IMG/VR virus record: IMGVR_UViG_2778261256_000006 | Location: 1 to 55,611 of that record | Strand: one strand, 5' to 3' | Length of the DNA: 55,611 nucleotides | From: a virus | Lineage: Duplodnaviria > Heunggongvirae > Uroviricota > Caudoviricetes | In this document: positions 1 through 55,611 of the stretch, one piece after another | Layout of the letters: the number at the start of each line of letters is the position of its first letter | How positions within the stretch are numbered: the first letter of the stretch is position 1 | Translations under genes and position numbers: made by a program | The notes under the pieces: generated by a model | What the model saw: the letters and a program-made list of their open reading frames with translations, nothing else | What the model was told of the DNA's origin: nothing | The model's database searches: none

Positions 1-1
1 G

Positions 2-910
2 TTACAAACATCGATTGTAGGGATTCGTGAAGGAAAAAACATCAGTTATGAGGAGTTGCAATATTCACTTCTTCCTATTCCGGCTGAAGAAGAACAAACC
101 CGTATCGCCAACTTCCTCGACAAGAAAACCGCTCTAATCGACGAAGCGATTTCGATCAAAGAGCAGCAAATTAGCCTGCTGAAAGAGCGTAAGCAGATCA
201 TCATCCAACAGGCGGTGACCCAAGGGCTTGATCCCAATGTGCCAATGAAAGACTCCGGTGTGGATTGGATTGGAGATATTCCAGAGCATTGGGAAGTTGT
301 GCCTCTAAAAAGGTTGGCGGTCTTGAGCCCTTCTGTGAAAGTTTCAAATAGAAAGTCCAAAGAATTAGTTACTTTCTTAGCGATGGAAAAGGTTTCAACA
401 GATGGATTTATTGATCAAGATACATTAATGCCTATATGTGATGTGAGCCAAGGTTTTACGGTTTTTAACCGGGGGGATGTGATTGTTGCAAAAATTACAC
501 CTTGCTTTGAAAATGGGAAATCTGCTTGGCTTAACAATCTTCAAACTGAGTTTGGATACGGCTCAACCGAGTTTCACGTTTTAAGATGTGGTCAGAGAAT
601 TATAGGAAGTTTTCTCTACTTAATCGTTAGTTCGCCCCTTTTTCTTAATGCCGGTGAGGCTATGATGACTGGTTCAGCTGGTCAGAAGCGCGTGCCTAGT
701 TCATTTATCCAAAACTTTCCTACCGCAATTCCCGGAGTTGCAGAGCAAGAAAAAATAGTATCAAAGGTAAAAGAGCTGTTTTCACAGATTGATGTTGTTG
801 TGGCTTCTACGGTAAATCAAATCGAAAAGCTCAAAGAATACAAAACCACCCTGATCAACAGCGCCGTGACAGGAAAAATAAAAATCACCCCGGAAATGGT
901 TGAGCAATAG
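2..910 (+). CDS. hsdS: Type I restriction-modification specificity subunit HsdS, 3' portion (5' end outside window)
   Basis: Frame is open from the window edge; HsdS-like central conserved region (LPIPAEEEQTRIANFLDKKTALID) followed by a target-recognition domain and C-terminal conserved helix; lies upstream of hsdR. Confidence 0.75.
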   Translation, partial: LQTSIVGIREGKNISYEELQYSLLPIPAEEEQTRIANFLDKKTALIDEAISIKEQQISLLKERKQIIIQQAVTQGLDPNVPMKDSGVDWIGDIPEHWEVVPLKRLAVLSPSVKVSNRKSKELVTFLAMEKVSTDGFIDQDTLMPICDVSQGFTVFNRGDVIVAKITPCFENGKSAWLNNLQTEFGYGSTEFHVLRCGQRIIGSFLYLIVSSPLFLNAGEAMMTGSAGQKRVPSSFIQNFPTAIPGVAEQEKIVSKVKELFSQIDVVVASTVNQIEKLKEYKTTLINSAVTGKIKITPEMVEQ

Positions 911-919
911 GACGCGAAT

Positions 920-2083
920 ATGTTCACGGTAAATCATCAGGCCAATAGGATTAGTCCGGTTAAGACTAAGAGATTCAGTGAGTTGGGCTTTACTGAGCGC
1001 AAAAATCTTCAGGAATGGTTGGCACACGAGCCTTCCGCACTGGGTGAAGAGCTGCTGATTATTCAAAAAGAGTTCGATGGCTTTGATGACACCCGTGAAC
1101 GCTTAGATTTACTGGCACTGGATAAAGATGGCAACTTGGTCATTATTGAAAACAAGCTGGACGACAGTGGCCGCGATGTGGTGTGGCAGGCGCTTAAATA
1201 TGCCTCTTACTGTGCCAGTTTAACCAAAGCGCAAATCGTTGAAATTTACCAGCAGTACTTAGACCGCTATGAGCATGTAACAGGAGAGGTTGACTTGTTT
1301 AATACCCCTGCAAGTGCCTCTGCTAGAATATGTGAGTTTTTGGATGCGCCCGATCTCGATGAGTTAAAGCTCAACCTGGGTAACAGCCAGCGCATTATGT
1401 TAGTTGCGGCAAACTTTCGCAAAGAAGTGACCTGCACCGCGCTGTGGTTATTGGGTCAAGGCATTAGCATTGCCTGCTTCAAAATCACGCCTTATTCACT
1501 GGGTGAACAGCTACTGATTAATATTGACCAGATCATTCCAACGCCAGAAGCGAAAGAGTTGATGATCGGCATTAATGCCAAGGAAGCGGAAGAAAAAACC
1601 ACCGAAGTGGTACTAAAAAACCGCCATACCGTGCGTCGCAAGTACTGGGAGCGTGCCTTAGAGGCGTTTCAGAAAAGCGCTTGCCAACTCTATAACAACA
1701 TTAGCCCAAGCAAAGATCATTGGTTATCAGCAGGCTCAGGGCTAAGTGGATGTCCGTATAACCTGATATTTCTGCAAAAAGAGCTTCGAGTAGAGCTTTG
1801 GATCAGCCGTGGGGTTACCGAAGAGAATAAATACCTTTTTGATTTGTTGAGTCAGTCCAAACAAGACATTGAGCATACTTTTGGTGCAGAACTTGAGTGG
1901 ATGAGGCTGGATGAGAAGAAATCTTGCCGTATCCAGTTTTCGACCAAAGCTGACGGGTTTAACAAAGAGACTTGGCCCCAAGCGGTTGCGTGGCACTTAG
2001 AGCAGATGACAAAGTTAGAAAAAGCCTTGAAAGGACCGCTGCAAAAAGCGGCTGAAGCAATGAAACAGAAGAATTTTGATTAA
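920..2083 (+). CDS. PD-(D/E)xK nuclease-fold protein (DUF4268-like), embedded between hsdS and hsdR
   Basis: 387-aa ORF with D-x(n)-ENK motif (DKDGNLVIIENK); 10-15 bp gaps to flanking hsd genes suggest one operon. Confidence 0.5.
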   Translation: MFTVNHQANRISPVKTKRFSELGFTERKNLQEWLAHEPSALGEELLIIQKEFDGFDDTRERLDLLALDKDGNLVIIENKLDDSGRDVVWQALKYASYCASLTKAQIVEIYQQYLDRYEHVTGEVDLFNTPASASARICEFLDAPDLDELKLNLGNSQRIMLVAANFRKEVTCTALWLLGQGISIACFKITPYSLGEQLLINIDQIIPTPEAKELMIGINAKEAEEKTTEVVLKNRHTVRRKYWERALEAFQKSACQLYNNISPSKDHWLSAGSGLSGCPYNLIFLQKELRVELWISRGVTEENKYLFDLLSQSKQDIEHTFGAELEWMRLDEKKSCRIQFSTKADGFNKETWPQAVAWHLEQMTKLEKALKGPLQKAAEAMKQKNFD

Positions 2084-2097
2084 GGGAATTTACAATT

Positions 2098-5816
<3,719 letters not shown>

Positions 5817-15812: not shown

Positions 15813-16273
15813 ATTGGGCTACACATAATAAGCATCGTAAAACGTAACGCCCACCGAGCCGCTGCCAGCTGCATGAAGCGCTGACAAAGTTCGCTGTCGA
15901 TTGCACTGGCCCGAGCCAGTTCGAATACCTCTAAGCCGAGTTTAACCACTTTGTGGCCTGGCGCTGCTGGGTCAAAATTGGCGTATCAAAAGAAGTCTAA
16001 AGGAAAGAAAACATGAAATTTACGAAACTGACCGATCATCTGAAACTTGCCGCAGACAAACTCGTGGGGTTTAAACCAGAGCCTTACGAGTTGAATCCCG
16101 GTTTTCCGCACGCCTTGCGGAACTGGAAGAACGAGTGTTTGAACTGGAGAAGCGCATTAATGCGCAAGCTACCGCCATAGCTAATCTGGGCACGACAGTA
16201 GGCATGGAGAAGGTGCGTAATAGCGTTGCTTCTCGTGTTTTGCGTGAAACCCGGATACACAAGGACAGTTCTC

Positions 16274-39745: not shown

Positions 39746-40999
39746 ATGACCATCCCGTCGTCTCTGAGTCTCGTACAGCTGCATTCTGGGCAGATGCAAG
39801 TCTTCCAGTCGCCACATCGTTTCAAAGTGGTGTGTGCGGGTCGACGCTGGGGTAAATCCCGGTTGTCGATCTCCACCATCATCCGCGCGGCAGCCAAAGA
39901 GAAGAAGCAACGTGTCTGGTATGTCGCACCGACTTACCAGATGGCTCGCCAGATCTTGTGGGATGACCTGCAGGAAGTTCTGCCGCGCAAATGGGTTCGT
40001 AAGAAAAACGACACCACGATGACCATCGTGCTGAAGAACGGCTCTGAAATCGCGCTGAAAGGTGCGGATAAGCCCGATACGCTTCGTGGTGTGGCACTGC
40101 ACTTTGTGGTGCTCGATGAATTTCAGGATATGAAGCCTGACACCTGGTACAAGGTACTGCGTCCGACACTGTCCTCCACCCGTGGCGGTGCGCTGATCAT
40201 CGGTACGCCAAAAGGCTTCTCCGAGTTCCACAAGCTGTGGACTATCGGTCAGAACAAAGATTTGCAACGCAAGGGGCAGTGGAAGAGCTGGCAGTTCGTT
40301 ACGGCCGATTCTCCGTTCGTACCGAGCGCGGAAATCGAAGCAGCGAAGAACGATATGGACCCTAAATCGTTCGCACAGGAATACCTGGCCAGCTTCGAAA
40401 ACATGTCCGGACGCGTTTACTACCCGTTCGACCGCAATGTGCATGTGAAGCCACTCCAGTTCAATCCGAAACTGCCGATCTGGGTTGGTCAGGACTTCAA
40501 CATCGACCCTATGTCATCGGTCATCCTGCAACCGCAGCCAAATGGTGAACTGTGGGCTGTGGACGAATTGGTGTTGTTCTCTTCTAACACGGCTGAAGTG
40601 TGTGACGAGCTGGAGCGTCGATACTGGCGCTGGAAATCTCAGGTCACTATCTTTCCTGACCCGGCAGGTGCGTATCGCCAGCACGCACGCGGCGAATCTG
40701 ACGTCGACATCTTCAAAGAGAAAGGTTTCCTTCGAGTCGATTATCCGAAGAAGCACCCGCCGATCGCAGACCGTGTTAACGCAGTGAACCGCATGTTGAT
40801 GAGTGCCTCGGGCGAAACCCGGTTGTACATCGATCCGAAGTGCAAACACCTCATCGACTCGCTGGAGAAGGTGATCTACAAGCCAGGCTCACGCGATATG
40901 GATAAGACTGGCGGCATCGAACACAGTGCGGATGCGTTGGGTTATCCAGCGTGCATCGTCGCTGGGGACTGCGTGGGCGCCTTGGGCATCTGGAAGTAG
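39746..40999 (+). CDS. Terminase large subunit (TerL)
   Basis: Walker A (VCAGRRWGKS), Walker B (HFVVLDEFQD), C-terminal RNaseH-like nuclease region. Confidence 0.85.
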   Translation: MTIPSSLSLVQLHSGQMQVFQSPHRFKVVCAGRRWGKSRLSISTIIRAAAKEKKQRVWYVAPTYQMARQILWDDLQEVLPRKWVRKKNDTTMTIVLKNGSEIALKGADKPDTLRGVALHFVVLDEFQDMKPDTWYKVLRPTLSSTRGGALIIGTPKGFSEFHKLWTIGQNKDLQRKGQWKSWQFVTADSPFVPSAEIEAAKNDMDPKSFAQEYLASFENMSGRVYYPFDRNVHVKPLQFNPKLPIWVGQDFNIDPMSSVILQPQPNGELWAVDELVLFSSNTAEVCDELERRYWRWKSQVTIFPDPAGAYRQHARGESDVDIFKEKGFLRVDYPKKHPPIADRVNAVNRMLMSASGETRLYIDPKCKHLIDSLEKVIYKPGSRDMDKTGGIEHSADALGYPACIVAGDCVGALGIWK

Positions 41000-41009
41000 G
41001 GGCAAACAT

Positions 41010-41483
41010 ATGGGTCTGAAGTACGACGCGCATCAGTTTAAGCGTGCTGGCGACAGGCTCAATAACAGCCAGAAAGCCTTTAAGCGTTATCTCATTCGTG
41101 ACATGGAGAAGCTGGCGCGTCTGGTTGAGCGTCTGGCGCGGGCAATGGCTCCGCTGGAGACTGGCTCACTCGAAAGCGCGATTTTCGCGAGAGTTGTCAA
41201 AGAGGGCTATACGGGGCTGCGTATTGAGTTATCGGTGTCTGGGGCTAAACCGCGCGAAGGGAACCCTGGTGTTGAGGTTGGTGATTATGCGGAGTACATG
41301 GAGTTGGGCAAGTATCGTCTCGGCTATCTCTCCCGCATGAAGAGCGTCACCAACCCGCCAGTTGCTGGTGTGAAGCCACGCGTTGGGCCTTTGTTCCTTG
41401 AAAGAGCGGCACAGGTCAGTGAGAAACAGTTCGCTCAGACGATAGCTGAAGCAGCAAGGAAAGCAGGTTTTACGAGAAGTTGA
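41010..41483 (+). CDS. virion morphogenesis protein (HK97 gp10-like; tentative)
   Basis: 158 aa; position and composition resemble head-tail joining proteins; motif-level support is weak. Confidence 0.4.
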   Translation: MGLKYDAHQFKRAGDRLNNSQKAFKRYLIRDMEKLARLVERLARAMAPLETGSLESAIFARVVKEGYTGLRIELSVSGAKPREGNPGVEVGDYAEYMELGKYRLGYLSRMKSVTNPPVAGVKPRVGPLFLERAAQVSEKQFAQTIAEAARKAGFTRS

Positions 41484-41484
41484 T

Positions 41485-41868
41485 GTGTTTATTGAAGCAT
41501 TTGCGAGCCTGATGCAGAAGGCGAAGATCGGCACACTCGGCACTGACATTTTCTGTCACTACATGCCAGCCAATGTGAAGTCCGGCGTCCTGTTGGTTAC
41601 TCCCAATACGGGGATCGCCATTGACCATGAGTTAAAAGGCTTTTATCACGACTCTTTTACCGTCATCGTGCGTAATGCGACGATCACAAAGGCGGTGGCG
41701 AAAGCCAATAAGATCATGGACATGTTTCCCGTCGAGGAAACCGTGTCAGATGGCGTTTACTTCCGGTTGGTACGACCAATGTCGATGCCGATAACTTATC
41801 CAAAAAACGAAGGCTCGTTGATTGAAGCGGGCATCCCGATTGAATTTGCGGGCTATTTGTTGAATTAA
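41485..41868 (+). CDS. tail terminator-like protein (tentative)
   Basis: 127-aa ORF immediately upstream of the major tail gene. Confidence 0.4.
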   Translation: MFIEAFASLMQKAKIGTLGTDIFCHYMPANVKSGVLLVTPNTGIAIDHELKGFYHDSFTVIVRNATITKAVAKANKIMDMFPVEETVSDGVYFRLVRPMSMPITYPKNEGSLIEAGIPIEFAGYLLN

Positions 41869-41942
41869 CAAAATAAGTAAGTATATACTTACTATTGGCG
41901 CCATGAAGGTGCTGATTTAACGGAAAAAGGAGTTTTCCAACA

Positions 41943-42689
41943 ATGTCCAATACCCATGTAAAAAACATCAAACTTGGCGCCTGCAAAGTGTCGTTTGGTG
42001 GTGTTGATCTGGGTTACACCAAAGGCGGTGTTCAGGTTGAGGTTGCGACCGAAACTCTGAAAGTTACCGTAGACCAGCTAGGGCAAACCACCATCTCCGA
42101 GCTGGTACAGGGCCGTAACATCACTATCACTGCGCCGCTGGCCGAGTCTGTGTTGCAGAATATGGTCGATCTGATGCCGGGTTCTACCCTGAGTGAAGAA
42201 GATAACTCTGTGACCATCACTTCCGCACAGGGCGTCAATCTGATCGACGTAGCTAAAGAGCTGGTTCTGACCCCGCAGGATACCACCGACTACGTTCTGA
42301 CCATCCCGAAAGCTGCGACCGCAGGTAACTTCACTATGACCTACCAGTCTGATGATGTTCGCGTGTTCTCGGTTCAGTTCACCGCTTACCCGGATGACGA
42401 CGGTATTCTGGGGAAAATGAGCGGCCCAAAGCCGGTTAAATCCGTCTCTATCTCTCCGGATTCTCCGGAAGTTAAAGCCGGTGAGAGCGTGCAGCTGGCA
42501 GCCCAGATCACACCTGCAGATGCCGGCGACAAAACCGGTGTGTGGGAGTCCGACAATCAGGAGAAGGCTACCGTTGATCAGACTGGTCTGGTTCGCGGAG
42601 TAGCTGAAGGTTCGGCAAATATCTCCTTCACCAGCAATAGCGGCGGCAAGAAAGCGACCAAAGCTGTAACGGTTAATTCTGCCGAATAA
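41943..42689 (+). CDS. Major tail protein with C-terminal Ig-like (Big_2-type) domain
   Basis: 248 aa; C-terminal about 80 aa Ig-like (VKSVSISPDSPEVKAGESVQLAAQITPADA..TVN); followed by a terminator and the G/GT chaperone genes. Confidence 0.7.
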   Translation: MSNTHVKNIKLGACKVSFGGVDLGYTKGGVQVEVATETLKVTVDQLGQTTISELVQGRNITITAPLAESVLQNMVDLMPGSTLSEEDNSVTITSAQGVNLIDVAKELVLTPQDTTDYVLTIPKAATAGNFTMTYQSDDVRVFSVQFTAYPDDDGILGKMSGPKPVKSVSISPDSPEVKAGESVQLAAQITPADAGDKTGVWESDNQEKATVDQTGLVRGVAEGSANISFTSNSGGKKATKAVTVNSAE

Positions 42690-42705
42690 TCGTGACGTGA
42701 CTAAG

Positions 42706-42734
42706 CAGAGGCTCAGGAAGAGCCTCTCTTTTAA
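42706..42734 (+). terminator. terminator/attenuator after the major tail gene
   Basis: GAGAGGCTC-AGGAAG-AGCCTCTC followed by TTTTAAAA. Confidence 0.6.
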
Positions 42735-42748
42735 AAGGATTTTAACCA

Positions 42749-43066
42749 ATGACCAAATTACTCGATCTCGACTCCATTCTACCTCCGAAGAAAAGTATCA
42801 AGTTCGGCGGTCAGGAATACCCCATCGTTGAAATGACAGTTGGTCTGTTCGTCTCCATCAAGCAGATGGAAGGCAAAGATCTTCAGAACATGTCTCCTGT
42901 AGAGCAGGTTACTGCTTACGCCGACCTGGTTCGCAAGGTCATCCCATCCGTGCCGGACGCTGTACTGGAAAAACTGACTGTTCCGCAGCTTCAGCAAATC
43001 TTCACCTTCGCTATGGAAGTGATTGATGAAGAGAACGAAAAAGCGGCTGGTGAAGGGGCAAAGTAA
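42749..43066 (+). CDS. Tail assembly chaperone (gpG-like)
   Basis: 105 aa, acidic C-terminus; directly upstream of an overlapping -1 frame ORF and the tape measure gene. Confidence 0.65.
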   Translation: MTKLLDLDSILPPKKSIKFGGQEYPIVEMTVGLFVSIKQMEGKDLQNMSPVEQVTAYADLVRKVIPSVPDAVLEKLTVPQLQQIFTFAMEVIDEENEKAAGEGAK

Positions 43067-43146
43067 TTTCCCGCGATGAATCCGGGGTAAAGACCGTATC
43101 GATAGATCTCGGATTCTATTTCAGTCGTGTAGTTGCTCACTACGCC

Positions 43147-43416
43147 GTGTCGCCATTAGAGCTGCTGGGCGTCCCTCTAACGATGTTCTGGATGCTCAGT
43201 CGCAACATCGACCGTCTACGTGCGGAAGAGGATGTCCGCAACCTGCAAGTCGCTCGCGCTGCCCAGGCAGATGGCGAGGGCGTGAAGGCGTTCATGGAGG
43301 GTTTGCAACTCAGGATTGGAAGACCAGTCGTAACCGATAAAGTCTACGATCCGCGCAAGGATAAGGCAGACCCTGACGCCAAAGAGCAACTGATGCAAAT
43401 TTTTGGCAGAGGATGA
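43147..43416 (+). CDS. Tail assembly chaperone extension (gpT-like), probably expressed as a G-T fusion by -1 frameshift
   Basis: -1 frame is open from 43054 and overlaps the last codons of the gpG-like gene; lacks its own RBS. Confidence 0.5.
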
Positions 43417-46400
43417 CAAGGGAATGTCACAAAACGTAGAGTTTGTCCTGTCGCTGGAAGACAAGCAGTTTACAGCGTCAATCGACCGGGCGGGTAAGCT
43501 ACTTACCAGATTCGGGGAGCAGGCCACAAAACCAGCTCAGAAAATTAACAATCTGGAACGCTCGTTGGGTTCGGTCTCCCGCATCATCGGCGTTCTGGAG
43601 TCCAAGCTCGATGCCACGGCAGACAAACTACAGGATGTAGCTGCCGGCTTCGAACTTGTGTCTGATGTTTCGCGCAAGACGCGAGGCAACATTACCAGCC
43701 TCAATTCAGGTCTCAAAACCCTGATTGAGCGCGTCGACACAACCACCTCTTCCGTTAATAAGCTCACCACATCGTTGCGCAAGGTTCAGTCTGAACTCAA
43801 TGAGTTTTCCGATTGGGCAACGTTCGCTGGTAAGAGCGCCAGCCGCTTCGGTACGGAGGTAAAAGAAGCCTCTACATCTGTGAGTGGTATGAATACGCGC
43901 CTTAACACCACGACGAAGCGTCTCAGTAATTGGGGCGTCACAACGAACCAGGCTGCCGAGGGGCTGAAGAAAGTCCGCGATCAGATGGATGCGGTGATTG
44001 GCCGCCAGCAGCTGATCAGCAAGCCGGTGCGTGTGCGCACCAGCGGCTACGGTGAGGGCGGTGGTAATGGCGGTGGCGGTCGACACAGCGGTTCCTATGG
44101 CCACGGCGGGCGCGGTGCTGAAAATGGCGTGTTCTCTGGTCTGCGCGGCAATATTTTCCTGCTGGGCGAGATTGGTGATGCGGCAAGAACGGTAACTGAC
44201 ATCCTGTTCGGCTGGCAGAAGCCAATCGTCGAAGCTGCCTCCAAAATGGAGCGTATGCGCGTCATGTTGCGCGGGCTGAACAAGGACAAGGCCAACCCTG
44301 GCAAAGCAGCCGCAGAGGATATGCAGTACATCGTGGATATGGCGCAAAACGCCCCGTTTGCGATGCAGGCGCTGACCGATTCCTTCGTTAAATTCCGCTC
44401 GGCAGGTCTCGATCCTACTGACGGTTCGCTGAAAGCATTGGTGGACTCTGTTGCACGCTTCGGCGGCGATAGTGAACTGCTAAAACGCGCAGCAGTGGCC
44501 GTCCAGCAGATGTCCGGTAAGGGCGTCGTTTCGATGGAAGAACTGCGTCAGCAATTAGGTGAAGCCGTTCCTAACGCGATGAAAGCGATGGCAGACGCTG
44601 CCGGCATTACTATGGGGGAACTGACCAAAGCAGTCTCCAGCGGTACTGTGGAAGCGAAACAGGCGTTATCGCTGATGTTCGTTGGTCTGCGTGCAGAGAA
44701 CGAAAACGCCGCCAAAGACATGATGCAAACCTACACCGGTGCGCTGGCGCAACTACAAACCTCCTTTACGTTGTTCGCCGATCGTGTCGGTCAGACGGGC
44801 TATCTGGATTCTCTCTCTAAGGGAATGAAAGAACTAGCCTCCATCATGAATAGCGCAGAAGGGATTTCGTTTGCTAATTCTTTAGGTTCGGGGTTAACGA
44901 CGGCAATCGATGGGTTGCGTCAGCTTGCTCAATGGTTAGCAAAGAACCAAGAGCTGGTAATTAATCTTGGTAAGGTCGTGGCCGCGATGGTTGCGTTCAA
45001 ACTGATGCGAGCAGGGATCATGGGGGTAGTTGGCGCTGGGAGCCAGATGGTTAGCACCTTTGCCACGATGGCGACCGCCATACAGACTCCATTTAACCTC
45101 GGCGCTACAGCAGTAACTCGATTCAATCGTGCGGCACGTATGGGGCTGGCTCCGATCCCCTCTCTTATTTTCGCCATCCGTGGGGCGATTACGGGGCTTA
45201 AAGGCGCTTTTGCTGGATTAACGGCGTTCATTGCAGCAAATCCAATTGGCGCTGCGTTTACCGTGGCAACCGTGGCCGGGTTGATCACGTATATGACCAT
45301 GCTTCGCAGCGAAACGTCAAAAGTCGTTGACGAGATTAGGAAAATACCAGAGGCGATGACGGCGGCCAAACGTGCACAAATGGCGGAGTATAAAGCGCGT
45401 CTTGAGCAACAAATCACGCAAAAGGAACAAGAGTTAAAATCTGGCGAAAAGGTGGTTTATGGGCCGGGTATGGCCGGAACTACAGTAAAGATTAATCAGG
45501 ATGAACGTAAACGTATAGAAAATGAGCTAAATGACCTTCGTGAGAAACGCGATAAAACTACTGGGGCAATTGAACGCGGAGACACTGCTGTAGCCAAACG
45601 TCTTGCAAAAGATGCGGCAGAATCACAGATAGAGAAAATACGGGAAGAGAATAGAGACTTTGCGGCAACATTCGCTAAAGCTCGTCAAGAGGCTCTGGAG
45701 AAGATCCAAAAAATCAATGATGACGATTCACTTTCTGATGACGAAAAGAACAAACTATTGGCACCGTTACGTGAAACGGTAAACAAAAGCTATCTGGAGC
45801 CTGCGCAAAAACTGGTTGATTCACTTTCTTCTCGTAAGAATGCGACCGAGAAGCAAATCGCGACTCTTAATGATCAGCTTGAAAAAGCCAAAAAAGATGG
45901 CAATACCGAGCAGATCCAGAAACTGCAAGGCAGTATTCGTGGTTATCAGGAGCATTTGGAAGCCGTTGCTCAGGAGCTGACTCAGGCAGAGTTCGAGAGA
46001 GATAATGCGGCCAAAACTGGTAAGGGCGTAATGTCAAACCAGGGGACTGTTCTTGGGTTAGGTACAACTGATAAAGCTGCTCAGAAGGCGCTGGCGCAAT
46101 ATATGCGAAACCAGATGGATTCTGCGACTTATCAGCGTACTTTGCCTGACGGCACTCCGATGATGGACTTCGAAGGTAAGCCGATTATTGGGCCTAAACA
46201 ACTCAAGACGCAGCTTAATTTGCAGAAAGCATCCAGTGCCAGCTCTCTGGAGAAAATGAGCGATGCGGAACGCGCCGCAGCCATTGCAGCGCTGACCAAA
46301 GCGCGCGAACAGGATGCCGCAGCAGCGGAAAAAGCCGGGCGACGTACAGCCAATGCTTCTCAGCGTGCGGCCAAGAAAGAACAGGCAGCGCAACAGAAAC

Positions 46401-46912
46401 TGGCGGCCGGATATCCAACAGCGTATGGAAATATCATTCACCTGAAAGGGATGACAGCCGTTGGCGAAGGTGAGTTACTCATCGGCTGGAGTGGTACAAG
46501 CGGTGCTCATGCTCCGGCATTTATTCGTTCACGACGGGATACGACCGACGCAAACTGGTCGCCGTGGGCGCAGCTTTACACCTCGGCTCATCCTCCTGCA
46601 GAGTTTTATCCAGTCGGTGCACCAATCCCGTGGCCATCAGATACCGTTCCGTCTGGCTATGCCCTGATGCAGGGGCAGACTTTTGACAAATCTGCATACC
46701 CGAAACTTGCAGTTGCTTATCCGTCAGGCGTGATCCCTGATATGCGTGGCTGGACGATTAAGGGCAAGCCCGCCAGTGGTCGGGCCGTATTATCTCAGGA
46801 ACAGGACGGCATTAAATCGCACACCCACAGCGCCAGCGCATCCAGTACGGATTTGGGGACGAAAACCACATCGTCGTTTGATTACGGCACTAAATCTGGA
46901 CAAACTTCTTAA
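43403..46912 (+). CDS. Tail tape measure protein, C-terminally fused in frame to a tail-fibre collar-like fragment
   Basis: 1169 aa; coiled-coil-rich, Gly-rich stretch ([18 protein letters not shown]); final about 150 aa carry a tail-collar-like motif ([49 protein letters not shown]). Confidence 0.75.
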
Positions 46913-47046
46913 CCGGCTCGACACCATCTCCAGTGGGTTCTTTGGCGGCATTGTTTCGAAAATAACGTCGTTCATTATTACCGTACTGCTTTTAGGATTG
47001 GCCGCGTATGGCGTAAAAAATGGATTGCAATAACAGGAGATCAAGG

Positions 47047-47739
47047 ATGAAAACTCCGAGAGGCATTCGTAATAACAACCCCGGTAATCTTGATAAAGGA
47101 GCGCCGTGGCAGGGCTTAGTCAACAACTCTTCAGAACCGCGCTTCTGCACGTTTAAAGACCCCGTGTGGGGGATTCGGGCATTGGCAGTGACACTCATTA
47201 CTTACCACGACAAGCGCCGCGCAAAAGATGGCTCCAGCATTGATACGATCCGCGAAGTCATCGAACGCTGGGCGCCTCCACATGAGAACAACACTTTGGC
47301 TTATGTGAACGAGGTATCCAAAGCCGTTGGAGTAGCACCAGATATGATTATCGATCTGCATGACTACGAGACCTTAAGGCCGCTGGTAGAGGCGATCATT
47401 AGACATGAAAATGGCCGAGGTCCGCTGAAAACTCCCAATAGCTGGTATACACCAGAACTTATCGAAGAAGGTCTGCGGCGTGCCGGCATTGTCAAACCGG
47501 TAAAGGCTGTAAAAGCCGTTCCTGTAACAAAAGAAACCGCAGGTGCTACAGTCACTGCAGGTATTGGCCTTGCACAAATTGCTGACGTTATGCCTCAAGT
47601 TTCTGCCGCAATGGATAAAGCGCAAGGCAATATCTCCAGTGGAGATACGGTACGCATCATCTTTGGCGTAGCTACCATTCTTGTGGCAGCATTCATTGCC
47701 TGGTCACAGGTGCGCAAACACCAGAACGGGATGGTCTGA
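47047..47739 (+). CDS. endolysin-like / cell-wall-hydrolase-like protein with C-terminal TM segment (tentative)
   Basis: AGGAGA RBS; directly upstream of Rz/Rz1; C-terminal hydrophobic helix (IIFGVATILVAAFIAW); enzymatic family not recognised. Confidence 0.4.
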   Translation: MKTPRGIRNNNPGNLDKGAPWQGLVNNSSEPRFCTFKDPVWGIRALAVTLITYHDKRRAKDGSSIDTIREVIERWAPPHENNTLAYVNEVSKAVGVAPDMIIDLHDYETLRPLVEAIIRHENGRGPLKTPNSWYTPELIEEGLRRAGIVKPVKAVKAVPVTKETAGATVTAGIGLAQIADVMPQVSAAMDKAQGNISSGDTVRIIFGVATILVAAFIAWSQVRKHQNGMV

Positions 47740-47740
47740 T

Positions 47741-47992
47741 ATGACCGGCAGCCTATTTTCAAAACTGAAGTTTGCTTTGATGACTCTGGCTGCCGTTCTT
47801 TTCGTGCTTGTCGGCGCTTATACGATGGGAGGTCGTGCGGCCCGGCAAGCAATAGAAGAGAAGGCAAGGCAGGAGGACAGGAAAAGGCTTCAAGGCACAG
47901 TGGACGTCAAAAATGAGATACTTAATGAAGTGCGGCGGAAAGATGCTTCTGCTGTTCATCGCGAGCTGCATGACAAGTGGCTGCGTGATTAA
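47741..47992 (+). CDS. i-spanin (Rz-like)
   Basis: N-terminal TM (LKFALMTLAAVLFVLVGAY) then charged coiled-coil; contains the start of an overlapping +1 frame lipoprotein gene. Confidence 0.7.
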   Translation: MTGSLFSKLKFALMTLAAVLFVLVGAYTMGGRAARQAIEEKARQEDRKRLQGTVDVKNEILNEVRRKDASAVHRELHDKWLRD

Positions 47993-48155
47993 GACACAGA
48001 CTTCTGGCGTGCTGTTTTGTGATGCAGCAAACCCTATTTATGTCAGTAACGACGACTTTATGACCGAAGAGACGGAACGCGAGATCCTCTTCCATAACAC
48101 GATGGGAGAGCGATTGTGCAATTGGCAACCGTCATTGTCGCCAAATAACATTTGA
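47913..48155 (+). CDS. o-spanin (Rz1-like lipoprotein), overlapping Rz in a different frame
   Basis: Lipobox (LLLFIASC / MTSGC); starts inside the Rz ORF and extends past it. Confidence 0.65.
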   Translation: MRYLMKCGGKMLLLFIASCMTSGCVIKTQTSGVLFCDAANPIYVSNDDFMTEETEREILFHNTMGERLCNWQPSLSPNNI

Positions 48156-48208
48156 ATGTGATTTAGGCGAAAGGCACTCTTTTTTACAGATCGAGTGCCT
48201 TCTTCAAT

Positions 48209-48760
48209 TTACAGATCTGAATCGTCGTACCAGTTACGGTCTACATCTGACTTTACAGAGAGGAAAGTGAGGCTATCGTCCACAAGGCTCCACTCATAAC
48301 TGCGGAAGAGCAGCTCCATTTCGGCTTCAACAGAAAAAGACGTGCCAGAGTAAGCTCTATCTGGATCTTGGTCTCCCTGATACTCGAAAGTAACAGTCAC
48401 AGACAAAATACCTTTATCTTGATTGTAACTAACTTTCGTAGCCTCAGGGTCTTCCATGGTAAATCCATTAGCGTTCGTTTCTGCAATATCGCCAGAAAGC
48501 TGTTCCTCAACTTCGCGCTCAAGGGCGCTAAAAACGCCCTCATGGAAGATTACTTCTTTGAGGGAGGTTTCGCCTAATGCTGCAAAGACGAGACGTGAAT
48601 CCATAGGGTCGCGTTTGGCAACTTCCGAAAGCTCATGATAGCTGGGGAACTGTGCTTCTTTAGCGACAATTTCCAACGCTTCGGTTCGCTTGATCCCTTT
48701 AACGCTGGACAATTCTTTTGCTTTGGATTTAAGAATGCTAAGGCAAGAGTAGTCAGACAT
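48209..48760 (-). CDS. hypothetical protein
   Basis: 183-aa acidic ORF convergent with the lysis genes. Confidence 0.5.
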   Translation of the reverse strand: MSDYSCLSILKSKAKELSSVKGIKRTEALEIVAKEAQFPSYHELSEVAKRDPMDSRLVFAALGETSLKEVIFHEGVFSALEREVEEQLSGDIAETNANGFTMEDPEATKVSYNQDKGILSVTVTFEYQGDQDPDRAYSGTSFSVEAEMELLFRSYEWSLVDDSLTFLSVKSDVDRNWYDDSDL

Positions 48761-49038
48761 GGCGTCATCTCCAAAAGTAAGTTTATGAATGCTACCGATA
48801 GCCTGCTAACCGGACGCGTCAAAACTACTTTGGCGAGCCAAGTTTAAATAAAACGTTGTTTAACGATGGGCTATTGCTTTGCGAGACAGGCGCCAGGTGA
48901 CCATCACCACCTGTCTTCATACTAACCAGGGAGCTTTTTCGAGTCAAATTTACATTCGGCTAATTTGTTAACTACCTATAAGTGCCTGACATTTCACCTT
49001 TACACCGCAGCTGTAGGCATTTAGGCTATATCGCATAT

Positions 49039-53431: not shown

Positions 53432-54616
53432 ATGAGCCTTTATGGTATTCAAATACCGAGGATTATCAAGATATTACCTGCAAAAAATAGGGGTAAGAAC
53501 GTGAGCGACTTGAAAGAATTACTGACCGAGCTGGATTTTGAGCAATGGCTCGATATGGAAGGGATCATCTACCGTCGTGGTGGAGTCAGTACTCGCGGAC
53601 GAGAGGTCAACATTAAAGAGTGTCCGGTATGCGGCAGCTCAAACTGGAAGGTTTATTTCAACCTGACCAGTGGTGTCGGCAAATGCTTTGCAGGTGATCA
53701 TCCCGAAGAGATTCAGTTCAACAAGCTGGTCTTCCTAAAGCATTACAGCGGCAAATCTCGTCGCGATTTTGAAGAGTACGTCCAGAACGCGCTGATCTCA
53801 CAAGGATGGGCACCGAAGAAGGAAGAGATCGTACTGGCCAGCAAGGTTGAACTAGAAGGACCGGTAGCTCTCCCGCGCCATTACGAACTCCCCATTGACG
53901 GTCGTCTTCCTGATTATCTGGTGGAGCGCCAGATTTCCCCGGAGCTGGCCAAATACTTTGATCTGCGTTACTGCGTCGAAGGCAAGCACGCATACGTCGA
54001 TCCGTACACAGACCAGGTCAAAGGACAGGTATTCGATATGCGAATACTGATACCGGTTTACGATCTGGATGGCGTGATGAAGACCTTCCAGGGCCGTGAC
54101 ATTACCGGTGCAGCAGAACGCCGGTATCTGTTCCCCATGCAGCTGCCAGCATCGGGTAAATTTCTATACAACGGCCACAATGCAGTCGGCAAACAGACTG
54201 TAGTTGTCTGTGAGGGGGCGTTCGATGTTATGGGGGTTAAACGAGCTATTTTTGATGAAGAAACATTACGCGATTACGTGGAACCGATAGGAACGTTCGG
54301 GATGCATCTATCTGGTAACACCACTCAGGATGCAGAAGATCAGTTGGGCGCGTTCCTGACGCTCAAGGCGCGTGGATTACGTAATGTGATTATGATGTGG
54401 GATAGTGAAAAGCAAGCTATACGCAACACGATGGCCGCAGCCAGGCGACTGACCAGTATCGGTCTTAATGTCAAAGTAGCGTGTTTGGGCGAGGAAGGAC
54501 TCGACCCCGGCGATGCGACACCGGGGCAGATTATCAAAGCCTACTATTGCGCAAAACCTTACTCACGACAGCTTGAACTTTTAAGCAAGGTAAAAGGCAT
54601 AGCAGCATTAGTTTGA
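53432..54616 (+). CDS. DNA primase (Zn-ribbon plus TOPRIM)
   Basis: Zinc ribbon (CPVCGSSNW..GKCFAGDH), TOPRIM-like acidic motifs (VVVCEGAFDVMG, MMWDSE). Confidence 0.7.
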   Translation: MSLYGIQIPRIIKILPAKNRGKNVSDLKELLTELDFEQWLDMEGIIYRRGGVSTRGREVNIKECPVCGSSNWKVYFNLTSGVGKCFAGDHPEEIQFNKLVFLKHYSGKSRRDFEEYVQNALISQGWAPKKEEIVLASKVELEGPVALPRHYELPIDGRLPDYLVERQISPELAKYFDLRYCVEGKHAYVDPYTDQVKGQVFDMRILIPVYDLDGVMKTFQGRDITGAAERRYLFPMQLPASGKFLYNGHNAVGKQTVVVCEGAFDVMGVKRAIFDEETLRDYVEPIGTFGMHLSGNTTQDAEDQLGAFLTLKARGLRNVIMMWDSEKQAIRNTMAAARRLTSIGLNVKVACLGEEGLDPGDATPGQIIKAYYCAKPYSRQLELLSKVKGIAALV

Positions 54617-55534
54617 ACCAGTATTAGTCACATACACATTGACCGAAAATGATTTAACTTCAGTGTTGAAGTTGTCAGTCATTACCGCGAGGTAGGCATT
54701 CTTGGTATCTCTGAATTGCTTCAGGATGATTTGAACGTTATCGGTGCAAACAAACGAGGTAGCCAGATTGCCTCCTTTCTCTGAAAAATCCTTCAGGAAG
54801 GTGCAGTCAACTTTGCCATCATTAGCGGTGAAGGTAGCATCATCACCCTGCCAGGTAAATGTAGCGTTAACGCCCTTATCAATGGATTTAGCAATAAGTC
54901 GCTGGGTGGCGGATTTTGTTTTGGCTTTGGAAGCCGGCGCTCGATATTTGCCGCTTTCTTTCAGTTCAGCAATGTATTTACAGCCGCTTTTATCTCCTTT
55001 ATCGCAAGCGGCCTGATAAAAATCGGCTGCTTTTTTATAATCCTTTTTAACACCCTCGCCATTCTCATACATAATGCCAAGATTTGTCATGGCATCGACG
55101 TTTCCGAGTTCAGCAGCTTTTTTATACCACTTAATTGCTTCGGCATCGTTTCGTTTAACACCTAAACCATCATCGTATAAGGTGCCTAATGCGAACATAC
55201 CATCTGAACTACCTTGATCCGCCGCTTTTTTGTAATAAGCAAAAGCCTTTTTATAATTCTTTTTAACGCCTTCACCATATTGGTAATACGCCCCAAGAAC
55301 TGAAGTTGCTTTAACATACCCGGCATCAGAGGCTAGTTTGAAGTATTTAATGGCGAGTGCATGATCTACTTTACCAAGCATCCCCTTTTGATAAATAGCA
55401 CCAAGATTGTTGTAGGCTCTACCTTCACGAGCATCCCCCGCAAGTTTGTAGTACTCAACAGCTTTATTTAGGTCTTTATCTACACCCTCGCCAAATGTGT
55501 ACATAACTCCAAGTGCATAATATGCTACTTTATC
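54608..55534 (-). CDS. Sel1-repeat protein, 5' end interrupted by IS10
   Basis: Tandem Sel1-like repeats (A..YYK.AA..G...A...LG.MY..G.GV); the frame runs into the IS10 end and stops 12 nt inside it. Confidence 0.7.
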   Translation of the reverse strand, partial: DKVAYYALGVMYTFGEGVDKDLNKAVEYYKLAGDAREGRAYNNLGAIYQKGMLGKVDHALAIKYFKLASDAGYVKATSVLGAYYQYGEGVKKNYKKAFAYYKKAADQGSSDGMFALGTLYDDGLGVKRNDAEAIKWYKKAAELGNVDAMTNLGIMYENGEGVKKDYKKAADFYQAACDKGDKSGCKYIAELKESGKYRAPASKAKTKSATQRLIAKSIDKGVNATFTWQGDDATFTANDGKVDCTFLKDFSEKGGNLATSFVCTDNVQIILKQFRDTKNAYLAVMTDNFNTEVKSFSVNVYVTNTGSN

Positions 55535-55611
55535 CTGATGAATCCCCTAATGATTTTGGTAAAAATCATTAAGTTAAGGTGGATACACATCTTGTCATAT
55601 GATCAAATGGT
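55535..55611 (+). mobile_element. IS10 (Tn10-type) outside end, extends beyond window
   Basis: Terminal 77 bp CTGATGAATCCCCTAATGATTTTGGTAAAAATCATTAAGTTAAGGTGGATACACATCTTGTCATATGATCAAATGGT matches the IS10 terminus as I recall it. Confidence 0.8.

Follow-up and report, generated by a model that had tools for sequence, protein, structure and literature searches.

The window, by which we mean the whole stretch of DNA analysed here (55,611 nucleotides), corresponds to NNVY01000030.1, a 55.6-kb draft contig of an SSU5/Cyrano-like phage-plasmid. It is a single contig of a short-read-era draft assembly (GCA_002485945.1), and the statements on gene content below cover that contig. The nearest intact relatives are E. 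coli IncFIB plasmids of 106-113 kb, which are about 99% identical. The contig is colinear with pGS04EC-1, S56 plasmid B and pYUXYEH3934-1 at 97-99.7% DNA identity, and the colinearity is interrupted solely at the junctions listed in Table 1; the region of the repA homologue is colinear with S56 plasmid B. Plasmid functions on the contig are represented by ParB_N proteins, a ParA-type ATPase, a DnaB-like helicase and a primase-like ORF beside the helicase. Genes for conjugation or mobilisation were not seen. The tape measure gene is 87% identical to that of Cyrano and 92% identical to that of Salmonella phage SSU5. The same gene is matched by Yersinia plasmids (61 records), and the representative of its protein cluster is a partial Y. 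pestis tape measure protein. Plasmids pMT1 of Yersinia pestis and pHCM2 of Salmonella Typhi, which are related to SSU5-type phage-plasmids, are long-established lineages with other accessory content.

The ORF of interest lies after two tail chaperone ORFs, as a tape measure gene does; the C-terminal third of the tape measure, however, is replaced in it by fibre sequence. From 5' to 3' it comprises the N-terminal two thirds of a tape measure protein, an internal fibre fragment, four out-of-frame holin codons and a stop codon (46910-46912), after which comes the 3' end of the holin gene. The preliminary description of this locus had taken the ORF, at 1169 codons, for a tape measure gene joined to a Collar fragment of a tail fibre, and this is confirmed by Pfam, by PHROGs and by identity to a fibre protein. 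Pfam places TMP_3 at residues 268-455 of the fusion ORF, and PHROG 1292 (tape measure) is covered at profile positions 1-1009 of 1523, about 65% of the family profile. The break in the tape measure gene was located by comparison with pGS04EC-1 (NZ_CP079773.1), S56 plasmid B (NZ_CP010244.1) and pTB212 (NZ_CP033252.1), which are 97-99.7% identical. The tape measure part lacks the C-terminal 527 residues.

Table 1. Features of the analysed contig, its four junctions and the fibre-gene breakpoints. Positions refer to the window, except for S1 to S3, which are given in coordinates of the PhiR42_1 locus L005.
Feature	Position	Strand	Remarks
Junction D	16103..16104	+	2-nt overlap TT; 8,264-bp deletion relative to pYUXYEH3934-1 and S56 plasmid B
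Large terminase gene	39746..40999	+	codons 1-402 of 418 native; last 15 read from another gene after junction A
Junction A	40943..40947	+	5-nt microhomology TATCC; 5,668-bp deletion relative to pGS04EC-1
Proximal tail genes	41010..43416	+	neck/tail completion, tail terminator, major tail protein with Big_2, two tail assembly chaperone ORFs
Longer version of fusion ORF	43403..46912	+	1169 codons from upstream TTG
Fusion ORF	43424..46912	+	1162 aa from ATG, the start used in annotated relatives
Tape-measure-derived part	43424..46415	+	codons 1 to about 996-997 of 1523; 99.4-99.7% DNA identity to pGS04EC-1 and S56 plasmid B
Junction B	46408..46415	+	8-nt microhomology CGGATATC common to the tape measure and fibre genes
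Internal side tail fibre fragment	46408..46896	+	native frame; about residues 731-893 of a 1025-aa Stf
Collar domain PF07484	46616..46759	+	Pfam, residues 1065-1112; E = 3e-11, above curated cut-off
Junction C	46893..46896	+	4-nt microhomology AATC; fibre gene to holin codon 62
Holin 3' remnant	46893..47033	+	codons 62-107 of 107; out of frame with the fusion ORF
Endolysin	47047..47739	+	230 aa, intact; PHROG 873; 97% aa identity to pGS04EC-1 homologue; Cyrano annotation Endolysin
Rz-like spanin gene	47741-47992	+	intact; PHROGs 1026 and 1275 for the spanin pair
Rz1-like spanin gene, overlapping Rz-like	47913-48155	+	intact; PHROGs 1026 and 1275 for the spanin pair
Breakpoint S1	~2431-2438 (L005)		GGGTAACC; used in K-12 Qin
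Breakpoint S2	~2480 (L005)		GTTATAC hairpin arm
Breakpoint S3	~2500-2508 (L005)		GGATATCC; used in the window

In the C-terminal part of the fusion ORF (residues 994-1158), several tail fibre families of PHROGs are matched. A fibre origin had been proposed for about 150 codons at this end; the origin stands, while the size becomes 163 codons (46408-46896). The collar-type motif and the HTHSASASS segment, which had been read as fibre-type, both lie inside this 163-residue stretch, and the stretch shows 100% amino acid identity to part of the fibre protein of S56 plasmid B, whose gene is unbroken across the breakpoint region. At the DNA level, the fragment is 99.6% identical to the S56 plasmid B fibre gene and 99.8% identical to stf of the lambdoid phage PhiR42_1, i.e., it is as near to a chromosomal lambdoid stf as to a phage-plasmid fibre gene. 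It lacks the N-terminal 730 residues (shaft and attachment) and the C-terminal 132 residues (tip). Compared with a side tail fibre of the lambdoid Stf type, only about 163 internal residues with the Collar domain are present and the assembly gene is absent.

The retained proximal tail proteins give Pfam hits and show 99-100% amino acid identity to those of pGS04EC-1, and the small terminase subunit is still present on the contig, whereas the large terminase has lost its native last 16 codons. Downstream, the lysis genes do follow the ORF directly, as had been described, but the cassette is itself truncated, with holin codons 1-61 lost. The holin remnant, identified through the Cyrano annotation (Holin), keeps a single hydrophobic segment and has no start codon of its own. 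Searching the window by tblastn with all pGS04EC-1 proteins revealed no portal, scaffold, major capsid, M, L, K, I, J or fibre assembly gene. The earlier statement that distal tail, baseplate and complete fibre genes are missing between the tape measure and the lysis genes is upheld: by tblastn, neither distal tail or tail tip genes nor a complete fibre gene turned up in that interval or elsewhere on this one contig of the draft assembly.

The contig and its intact SSU5-like relatives share RepA, ParA/ParB-like genes, helicase/primase, terminase and proximal tail genes, the N-terminal part of the tape measure, endolysin, spanins and the order of the backbone genes. In contrast to the contig, the intact relatives encode a tape measure protein of 1523-1525 aa, followed by M, L, K, I, J, a complete fibre and a complete holin. 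The virion-producing Cyrano (OV696614.1), for example, has a full-length tape measure of 1525 aa and then tail tip (M, L, K, I, J), fibre and holin genes at this position. In addition, the intact relatives keep the portal and capsid genes, and a fibre assembly gene that is gone from the contig is carried by three E. coli plasmids (pGS04EC-1, S56 plasmid B and pTB212). No functional relative with the same tape measure C-terminus was found; the functional relatives SSU5 and Cyrano match the tape measure part only.

The junctions were placed by comparison with the near-identical intact plasmids, and the chance of the microhomologies was estimated from random breakpoint pairs. The proposed in-frame deletion of the distal tail module is borne out by deletion B, which breaks the tape measure gene at about codon 996 of 1523 and joins it to the native fibre frame. 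Alignment to the tape measure and fibre genes of relatives locates this joint at 46408-46415. Relative to S56 plasmid B, deletion B covers 11,016 bp from the tape measure gene into the fibre gene and takes the C-terminal third of the tape measure, the M, L, K, I and J homologues and the N-terminal part of the fibre. The single deletion first envisaged has to be supplemented by a second one 3' of the fibre piece and by two more elsewhere. Deletion C (1,304 bp) comprises the fibre tip, the tail fibre assembly gene and holin codons 1-61. Deletion A spans the 3' end of the terminase gene to the head-closure gene, with the loss of the portal, a scaffold-like DUF6651 protein, the major capsid protein, an Ig-like decoration protein, an adaptor and most of the head-closure gene. 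Deletion D, in a nucleotide-metabolism region, costs the contig a further 8.3 kb relative to the intact relatives; it runs from inside a MazG-like pyrophosphohydrolase gene through thymidylate synthase, DHFR, ATPase, exonuclease and methyltransferase genes. In sum, 26.3 kb have been lost through four joints mapped to the nucleotide. Microhomologies of at least 8, 5 and 4 nt (B, A and C) are expected by chance with P of about 1e-4, 5e-3 and 2e-2, respectively. Junction B is in frame, while junctions A and C, the other joins between coding genes that were checked, are out of frame.

These joints are private to the contig. None of the four junctions is spanned by a plasmid in PLSDB, nor are B and C spanned in any complete E. 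coli genome. The exact fusion protein occurs on one contig only among about 15 billion proteins; a search of 5.8 billion proteins gave no match joining this tape measure to a fibre, and among phage records none has the tape measure and fibre matches contiguous. Four private deletions are many for one element, and a second, intact copy in the same cell, or genes that have moved, may lie on other contigs of the assembly.

Taken together, the fusion ORF is very probably a non-functional deletion scar in a derivative of an SSU5/Cyrano-type siphoviral phage-plasmid. For its origin we infer the following mechanism and order of events. Short-homology illegitimate recombination, by replication slippage or template switching or by break repair through microhomology, would have joined the tape measure gene, at about codon 996, with the side tail fibre gene of the same element, using the 8-nt match CGGATATC and removing 11 kb of distal tail genes. 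A second join, at a 4-nt match, would have connected a point 489 bp farther along the fibre gene with the interior of the holin gene. Two separate events are possible, as is a single template-switching event in which the 489 bp were copied. The in-frame state of the first join would be a matter of chance, one in three.

Deletions B and C, together with the loss from portal to head closure, would leave the element unable to make heads, tail tips and fibres, and without an intact holin. The backbone and the replication and partition genes of a functional SSU5-like element are present, whereas a complete virion module and a complete lysis cassette are not. Essential phage genes have been lost relative to close intact relatives and the novel joints are identifiable, as in an element defective by deletion. 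Gene content thus favours the earlier suggestion of a possibly defective element, and we infer a defective phage-plasmid that probably persists only as a plasmid, with RepA, ParA/ParB-like and helicase/primase genes kept.

Whether the joints are real deserves consideration, because the source is a draft WGS contig, the four junctions are found nowhere else, and the 489-bp fibre block is multi-copy in E. coli (matched in 3810 of 5426 genomes), assemblers being prone to err at repeats. A chimeric contig, arising in assembly or in the library, might thus conceal a real plasmid with an intact region from the tape measure through the distal tail to the fibre. However, the joined sequences share only 2-8 nt, far under any assembler k-mer; therefore, a graph misjoin cannot make these junctions, and reads spanning them must exist. 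Moreover, the rest of the contig is colinear with relatives at 97-99.7%, and if the sample contained an intact copy, the contig would normally be broken at the junctions and that copy would not be skipped four times. We consider such an artefact very unlikely.

The fibre piece may also have come from outside the element. A single deletion from tape measure to holin could have been repaired with a 489-bp copy of the stf of a chromosomal lambdoid prophage, through template switching or microhomology-mediated break-induced replication, rather than with the element's own fibre gene. The fragment is marginally nearer to the PhiR42_1 stf (identical at the GGCACTAAATC end) than to S56 plasmid B, and each of its ends falls on a recurrent boundary of the stf family: the 5' end on S3, the 3' end on the mosaic boundary at L005 2986-2989. 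However, one or two SNPs cannot tell the two sources apart, SSU5-like plasmids with this fibre allele exist (98-99.6% identity), and the order and orientation of the fragment between tape measure and holin fit two deletions in a colinear ancestor. Repair from a prophage is thus unlikely, if somewhat less so than an artefact. A working chimera is the least probable of the alternatives, to the point of being barely credible: here the collar-ended tape measure would function in a phage with tail genes elsewhere, or in a helper-dependent satellite. In its favour, the fusion is in frame, and the contig keeps the tail tube, the chaperones, the small terminase and the greater part of the large one. 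Nevertheless, the frame has a one-in-three chance and neither junction A nor junction C is in frame; the tape measure is 527 residues short at its C-terminus, and the fibre piece has neither its attachment end nor its receptor-binding end; the contig has no portal, capsid, tail tip or intact holin; the large terminase is short of its last 16 codons; and the protein is confined to a single contig. A helper with the same type of replicon would be incompatible with the element in one cell. As to satellites, no satellite-specific genes were seen on the contig, and its gene content is that of a truncated SSU5-type element.

As a deletion scar, the fusion ORF has a precedent in P1-like elements, in which the loss of phage genes is documented to turn phage-plasmids into plain plasmids (PMC10879196). 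As in those P1-type cases, virion or lysis genes are lost and survival would be as a plasmid only; unlike them, the contig is SSU5-type and a very recent private derivative, with junctions that can still be read to the nucleotide. It provides a nucleotide-resolved example of a phage-plasmid decaying to a plain plasmid, of little significance by itself, and apart from the side result described below the decay is of an ordinary kind. Meanwhile, gene callers will name the chimeric ORF a tape measure protein with a Collar domain, which is not to be taken as a new tail architecture.

The side result concerns the fibre side of junction B, which lies inside a stretch of 72 bp with which the distal side-tail-fibre module begins. 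This stretch is a recurrent right-hand endpoint of deletions in E. coli prophages, including the nohA/stfQ joint of Qin in K-12, with three breakpoints (Table 1). At least 25 to 30 different left partners were found, among them homologues of Nu1, gpA, portal, C, E, Z, V, H and L, non-lambda phage genes, one chromosomal gene and, in the window, the SSU5 tape measure gene. Four chromosomal fusions were inspected, and downstream of each fusion gene lie tfa, pin, a ynaE-like gene and a prophage-adjacent chromosomal gene. Deletions that gut lambdoid prophages end at the same few stf nucleotides far more often than chance allows, and the phage-plasmid of the window, though unrelated to them, was broken in that stretch as well. 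It is possible, and we put it forward tentatively, that the breakpoint is non-random through site-preferential breakage or recombination on the 72-bp stretch.

Several causes of the clustering were considered. A crossover by an invertase of the Pin/Gin/Cin/Hin type was rejected, as no 26-bp crossover site with an AAACC-NN-GGTTT core occurs in or near the stf stretch, no flanking inverted repeat is present, and the sequence that natively continues rightward from the breakpoints of the left partners is unlike the stf site; as a positive control, the pix sites of e14 (AAACCTTGGTTTGGGAGAAGG) were found. A Chi-protected end was also rejected, GCTGGTGG being absent from both strands of the stf-tfa-pin locus. 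The 141-nt stretch folds no better than shuffled sequences (z = -0.48), which gives no indication of strong secondary structure. Small palindromes, among them GGTAACC, GTTATAC and GGATATCC, and a hairpin with a 7-bp stem are the only local structures, and their role as the cause of breakage is a weak idea. No transposase or IS end adjoins S1 in the loci inspected, and an IS element is not supported as the cause. Insertion of a mobile fibre cassette was dismissed as well: in four of four chromosomal fusions the remainder of the interrupted gene does not follow downstream, and these fusions are therefore deletions. Common descent of the S1 joints is unlikely, because their left flanks represent different positions on the lambda map, and each flank stays colinear as far as the breakpoint of its own joint.

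In the cryptic prophage Qin of K-12 and its variants in other strains, as in the window, a packaging or morphogenesis gene (in Qin, the Nu1 homologue nohA) is fused directly to distal stf by a deletion, with the fibre-side breakpoint in the same 72-bp stretch, at S1 in K-12 and at S3 in the window. Qin, however, is a chromosomal lambdoid prophage in which the distal fibre module and the fibre assembly gene are whole, whereas in the window a second cut follows 489 bp farther along the fibre gene, and an SSU5-type tape measure gene forms the left partner. A search of the literature on stfQ and nohQ found nothing relevant. If site preference exists and acts via a specific nuclease, recombinase or DNA structure, it would represent a general and undescribed route of prophage domestication, and a specific mechanism would help to explain the frequent survival, in E. 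coli cryptic prophages, of the distal fibre, fibre assembly and invertase genes after the other virion genes have gone. The position of the fibre-side breakpoint of the fusion ORF in this recurrently used stretch hints at a more specific process than random slippage.

The exact fusion protein, in which a tape measure protein runs into a side tail fibre (Stf) fragment, is recorded on one contig only, NNVY01000030.1 of assembly GCA_002485945.1, which at 55,611 bp is the whole window. The tape measure part of the ORF (nucleotides 1-3013) shows 99.4-99.7% identity to E. coli non-mobilizable IncFIB plasmids of 106-113 kb, 92% to Salmonella phage SSU5 and 87% to phage-plasmids such as Cyrano. The 489 nt that precede the ORF end instead show 98-99.8% identity to stf genes of lambdoid phages and also match some SSU5-like plasmid fibre genes, at no more than 99.6%. 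The E. coli plasmids pGS04EC-1, S56 plasmid B and pTB212 share with Cyrano a common gene order: small and large terminase, portal, scaffold-like protein, major capsid, Ig-like protein, adaptor, head closure, neck, tail terminator, tail tube, two chaperone ORFs, a 1523-1525-aa tape measure, M, L, K, I, J, fibre (followed in the three plasmids by a fibre assembly gene), a 107-aa holin, endolysin, spanins, a toxin-antitoxin pair and ParA. Cyrano is functional, with encapsidated genomes above background and siphovirus particles whose 259-nm tails are as expected for a 1525-aa tape measure (PMC9928086).

The preliminary description proposed that the tape measure ORF ends in a tail-collar-type fibre fragment, and the domain placement confirms this. 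Pfam places TMP_3 at residues 268-455 and the phage tail Collar domain at residues 1065-1112; in PHROGs, the tape measure family match spans profile positions 1-1009 of 1523, and residues 994-1158 match tail fibre families. Both protein motifs quoted in that description are present in the ORF. Segments of the window were defined by BLAST against the intact relatives, and four deletion joints (junctions A to D) were placed by base-by-base comparison. The alignment of the ORF region located the fusion at tape measure codon ~996, where the fibre is joined in frame, so that the protein consists of tape measure residues 1 to ~996, 163 fibre residues and G-Q-T-S before the stop. Since these 163 residues match the fibre of S56 plasmid B at 100% identity, the native fibre frame is read, and G-Q-T-S is an out-of-frame reading of holin codons 63 onwards. 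The fibre piece corresponds to residues ~731-893 of the 1025-aa Stf of PhiR42_1, and has neither the shaft/attachment end nor the receptor-binding tip. Judged by identity, its source could be the element's own fibre gene (99.6%) or a chromosomal stf (99.8%), neither being proven.

Features of the window, and breakpoint spots S1 to S3 in PhiR42_1 stf
Feature	Position	Strand	Shared sequence or identity	Remarks
Fusion ORF, TTG start	43403..46912	+		1169 codons
Fusion ORF, ATG start as annotated in relatives	43424..46912	+		1162 aa
Upstream of neck gene to tape measure codon ~997	40943-46415		99.4%	
Inside S56 plasmid B fibre gene	46408-46896		99.6%	
Holin gene second half onwards	46887-48110		about 91%	
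Junction A	40943-40947		TATCC	5,668 bp deleted
Junction B	46408-46415		CGGATATC, common to both parents	11,016 bp deleted
Junction C	46893-46896		AATC, common to both parents	1,304 bp deleted
Junction D	16103-16104		TT, 2-nt overlap	8,264 bp deleted
183-aa gene, unrelated, in place of toxin-antitoxin pair	48209-48760	-		PHROG 28020
S1	just before T710			followed by TALTDNTQG; at least 15 different partners
S2	just before Y724			followed by YEVYNNGYP
S3	just before Y732			followed by YPTAYGN; site of junction B

At junction A, terminase codon 402 (of 418) is fused to the 3' remnant of the head-closure gene, most of which is lost together with the portal, scaffold-like, major capsid, Ig-like and adaptor genes; the last 16 codons of the large terminase are replaced. 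Junction D removed the 3' part of a MazG-like gene together with the thymidylate synthase, DHFR, ATPase, 3'-5' exonuclease and adenine methyltransferase genes. Of the holin, only codons 62-107 remain, without a start codon; the endolysin and spanins are intact. The reported lack of distal tail and fibre genes was confirmed, as tblastn with every pGS04EC-1 morphogenesis protein found the missing morphogenesis genes nowhere else in the window. Between the spanins and parA (48110-48996), the relatives' KacT-type GNAT toxin and DUF1778 antitoxin are replaced. The contig begins within a type I restriction-modification specificity subunit gene (1-910), with DUF4268 and hsdR next, and ends (54608-55611) just past a 298-aa ORF with Sel1-like repeats, seen by eye, where the relatives carry phd/doc. 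The window lacks about 30 kb of the relatives' sequence, which may be carried on other contigs; hsdM, DNA polymerase III alpha, an integrase, a ligase and a fimbrial operon are part of it.

The window is one contig of a draft assembly, but with no more than 2-8 nt in common between the joined sequences, graph misassembly at the joints is unlikely. Among 200,000 random breakpoint pairs in a relative's sequence, microhomology of at least 8, 5 and 4 nt occurred in 1e-4, 5e-3 and 2e-2 of trials, respectively; junctions B, A and C thus carry more homology than chance, which we interpret as a signature of short-homology illegitimate recombination, possibly by slippage, template switching or microhomology-mediated end joining. 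Junctions B and C, 489 bp apart, might represent two events or a single template-switching event copying 489 bp. Only B is in frame with its downstream gene, A and C being out of frame; this is the one-in-three expectation of chance and gives no hint of selection for the chimera. ATC is present in all three microhomologies, and junction B joins two GATATC (EcoRV-type) palindromes, one from the tape measure and one from the fibre gene; this pattern may be due to chance.

The chimeric ORF is a scar, not a new tail protein. Judged from the gene content, no head could be assembled without portal and capsid, and a tail lacking the tape measure C-terminus, tail tip, J and fibre could not be completed; the truncated holin would impair lysis. 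The element keeps its replication and partition genes, and is probably a phage-plasmid decaying into a plasmid, the same kind of decay as described for P1-like elements (PMC10879196). The joints and gene losses relative to the relatives show that the earlier idea, a deletion fusing the tape measure to a fibre gene in a possibly defective element, was right in substance.

A 1-kb probe across B and C was covered to 80% by nothing in a set of 72,556 plasmids and 5,426 complete E. coli genomes, and no plasmid in PLSDB spans junction A or D. The other members of the fusion protein's 90%-identity cluster are all partial tape measure proteins, and a 282-aa junction-spanning query against 5.8 billion proteins returned no other tape measure-fibre join of this kind. 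Since none of these searches of plasmids, genomes and proteins found the same join, the possibility that functional relatives share this C-terminus was not realized. The element is a private, multiply deleted SSU5-type phage-plasmid of an ordinary kind.

The main wider point of interest is the fibre breakpoint, which merits a systematic survey. Where the distal fibre module begins, a 72-bp stretch (2431-2508 of L005, the PhiR42_1 locus) repeatedly forms the right-hand endpoint of large deletions in E. coli prophages. It is joined to at least 25 left partners that differ from one another, and one such joint is nohA/stfQ in K-12 Qin; a literature search found no description of this hot spot. The protein search also gave many E. 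coli proteins of 300-490 aa with the same distal module behind unrelated N-terminal partners (Nu1, gpA, portal, ClpP-like C, capsid E, tail tube V, lambda-type H and others). Aligning the 120 hits to PhiR42_1 Stf showed the joints clustering at S1, S2 and S3. In a less biased sample of 80 IMG/VR loci with the module, 41 have full fibres, about 20 are natural fibre mosaics with long upstream ORFs; in 11, stf homology starts at L005 2431-2438 (S1), behind at least nine different left flanks, and in two it starts at 2500 (S3). Among the left flanks at S1 are lambda gpA residues 56 and 79, E 60 and 284, Z 28 and L 181, together with C, genes resembling portal and H, and a Rac-like context. The four chromosomal fusions looked up all map to the Qin prophage locus and have tfa and a Pin-type invertase downstream; they arose by deletion rather than insertion. 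In K-12, nohA and stfQ meet at S1 (the match begins at L005 position 2437), whereas the joint of the window is at S3. The 3' end of the window's fibre fragment (L005 2989; window 46893-46896 corresponds to L005 2986-2989) lies within 2-3 nt of a natural stf mosaic boundary, homology to PhiR42_1 stopping at 2986-2987 in many stf alleles; both ends of the 489-bp block are thus at recurrent recombination boundaries.

When lambda is taken as the left parent, homology at the joints is short and in many cases imperfect (lower case, mismatch): GTCGGtTA (L025), GGtTAtCCG (L023), GTAACCG (L014) and a single nucleotide (L075) at S1, and ACGGATA (L097) and CGGATATC (the window) at S3. Breakpoints concentrate on three short sequences, all (quasi)palindromic: GGGTAACC, GTTATAC and GGATATCC. 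S1 (CGGGTAACC) and S3 (CGGATATCC), each a (quasi)palindrome, match at 7 of 9 positions, and S2 lies within one arm of a hairpin with a 7-bp stem; the stretch has no strong overall fold. A Pin crossover is rejected, there being no crossover site at the breakpoint, and so is Chi, which is absent; an IS origin is not supported, no IS element being seen there. Local sequence features do not account for the concentration of first events at this stretch. Left ends at E residue 284, Nu1 residue 178 and portal residue 144 each recur with different fibre sites, S1 in one genome and S2 or S3 in another, which the S1/S3 similarity can explain through secondary small deletions. A Qin-type prophage on a Logan contig (L018, ERR3062002, 3681-5433) carries portal joined to capsid E with a 3-nt overlap and then E residue 284 joined to S3; IMG/VR locus L064 has this E breakpoint attached to S1, suggesting that small deletions between the two similar motifs, S1 and S3, followed as secondary events.
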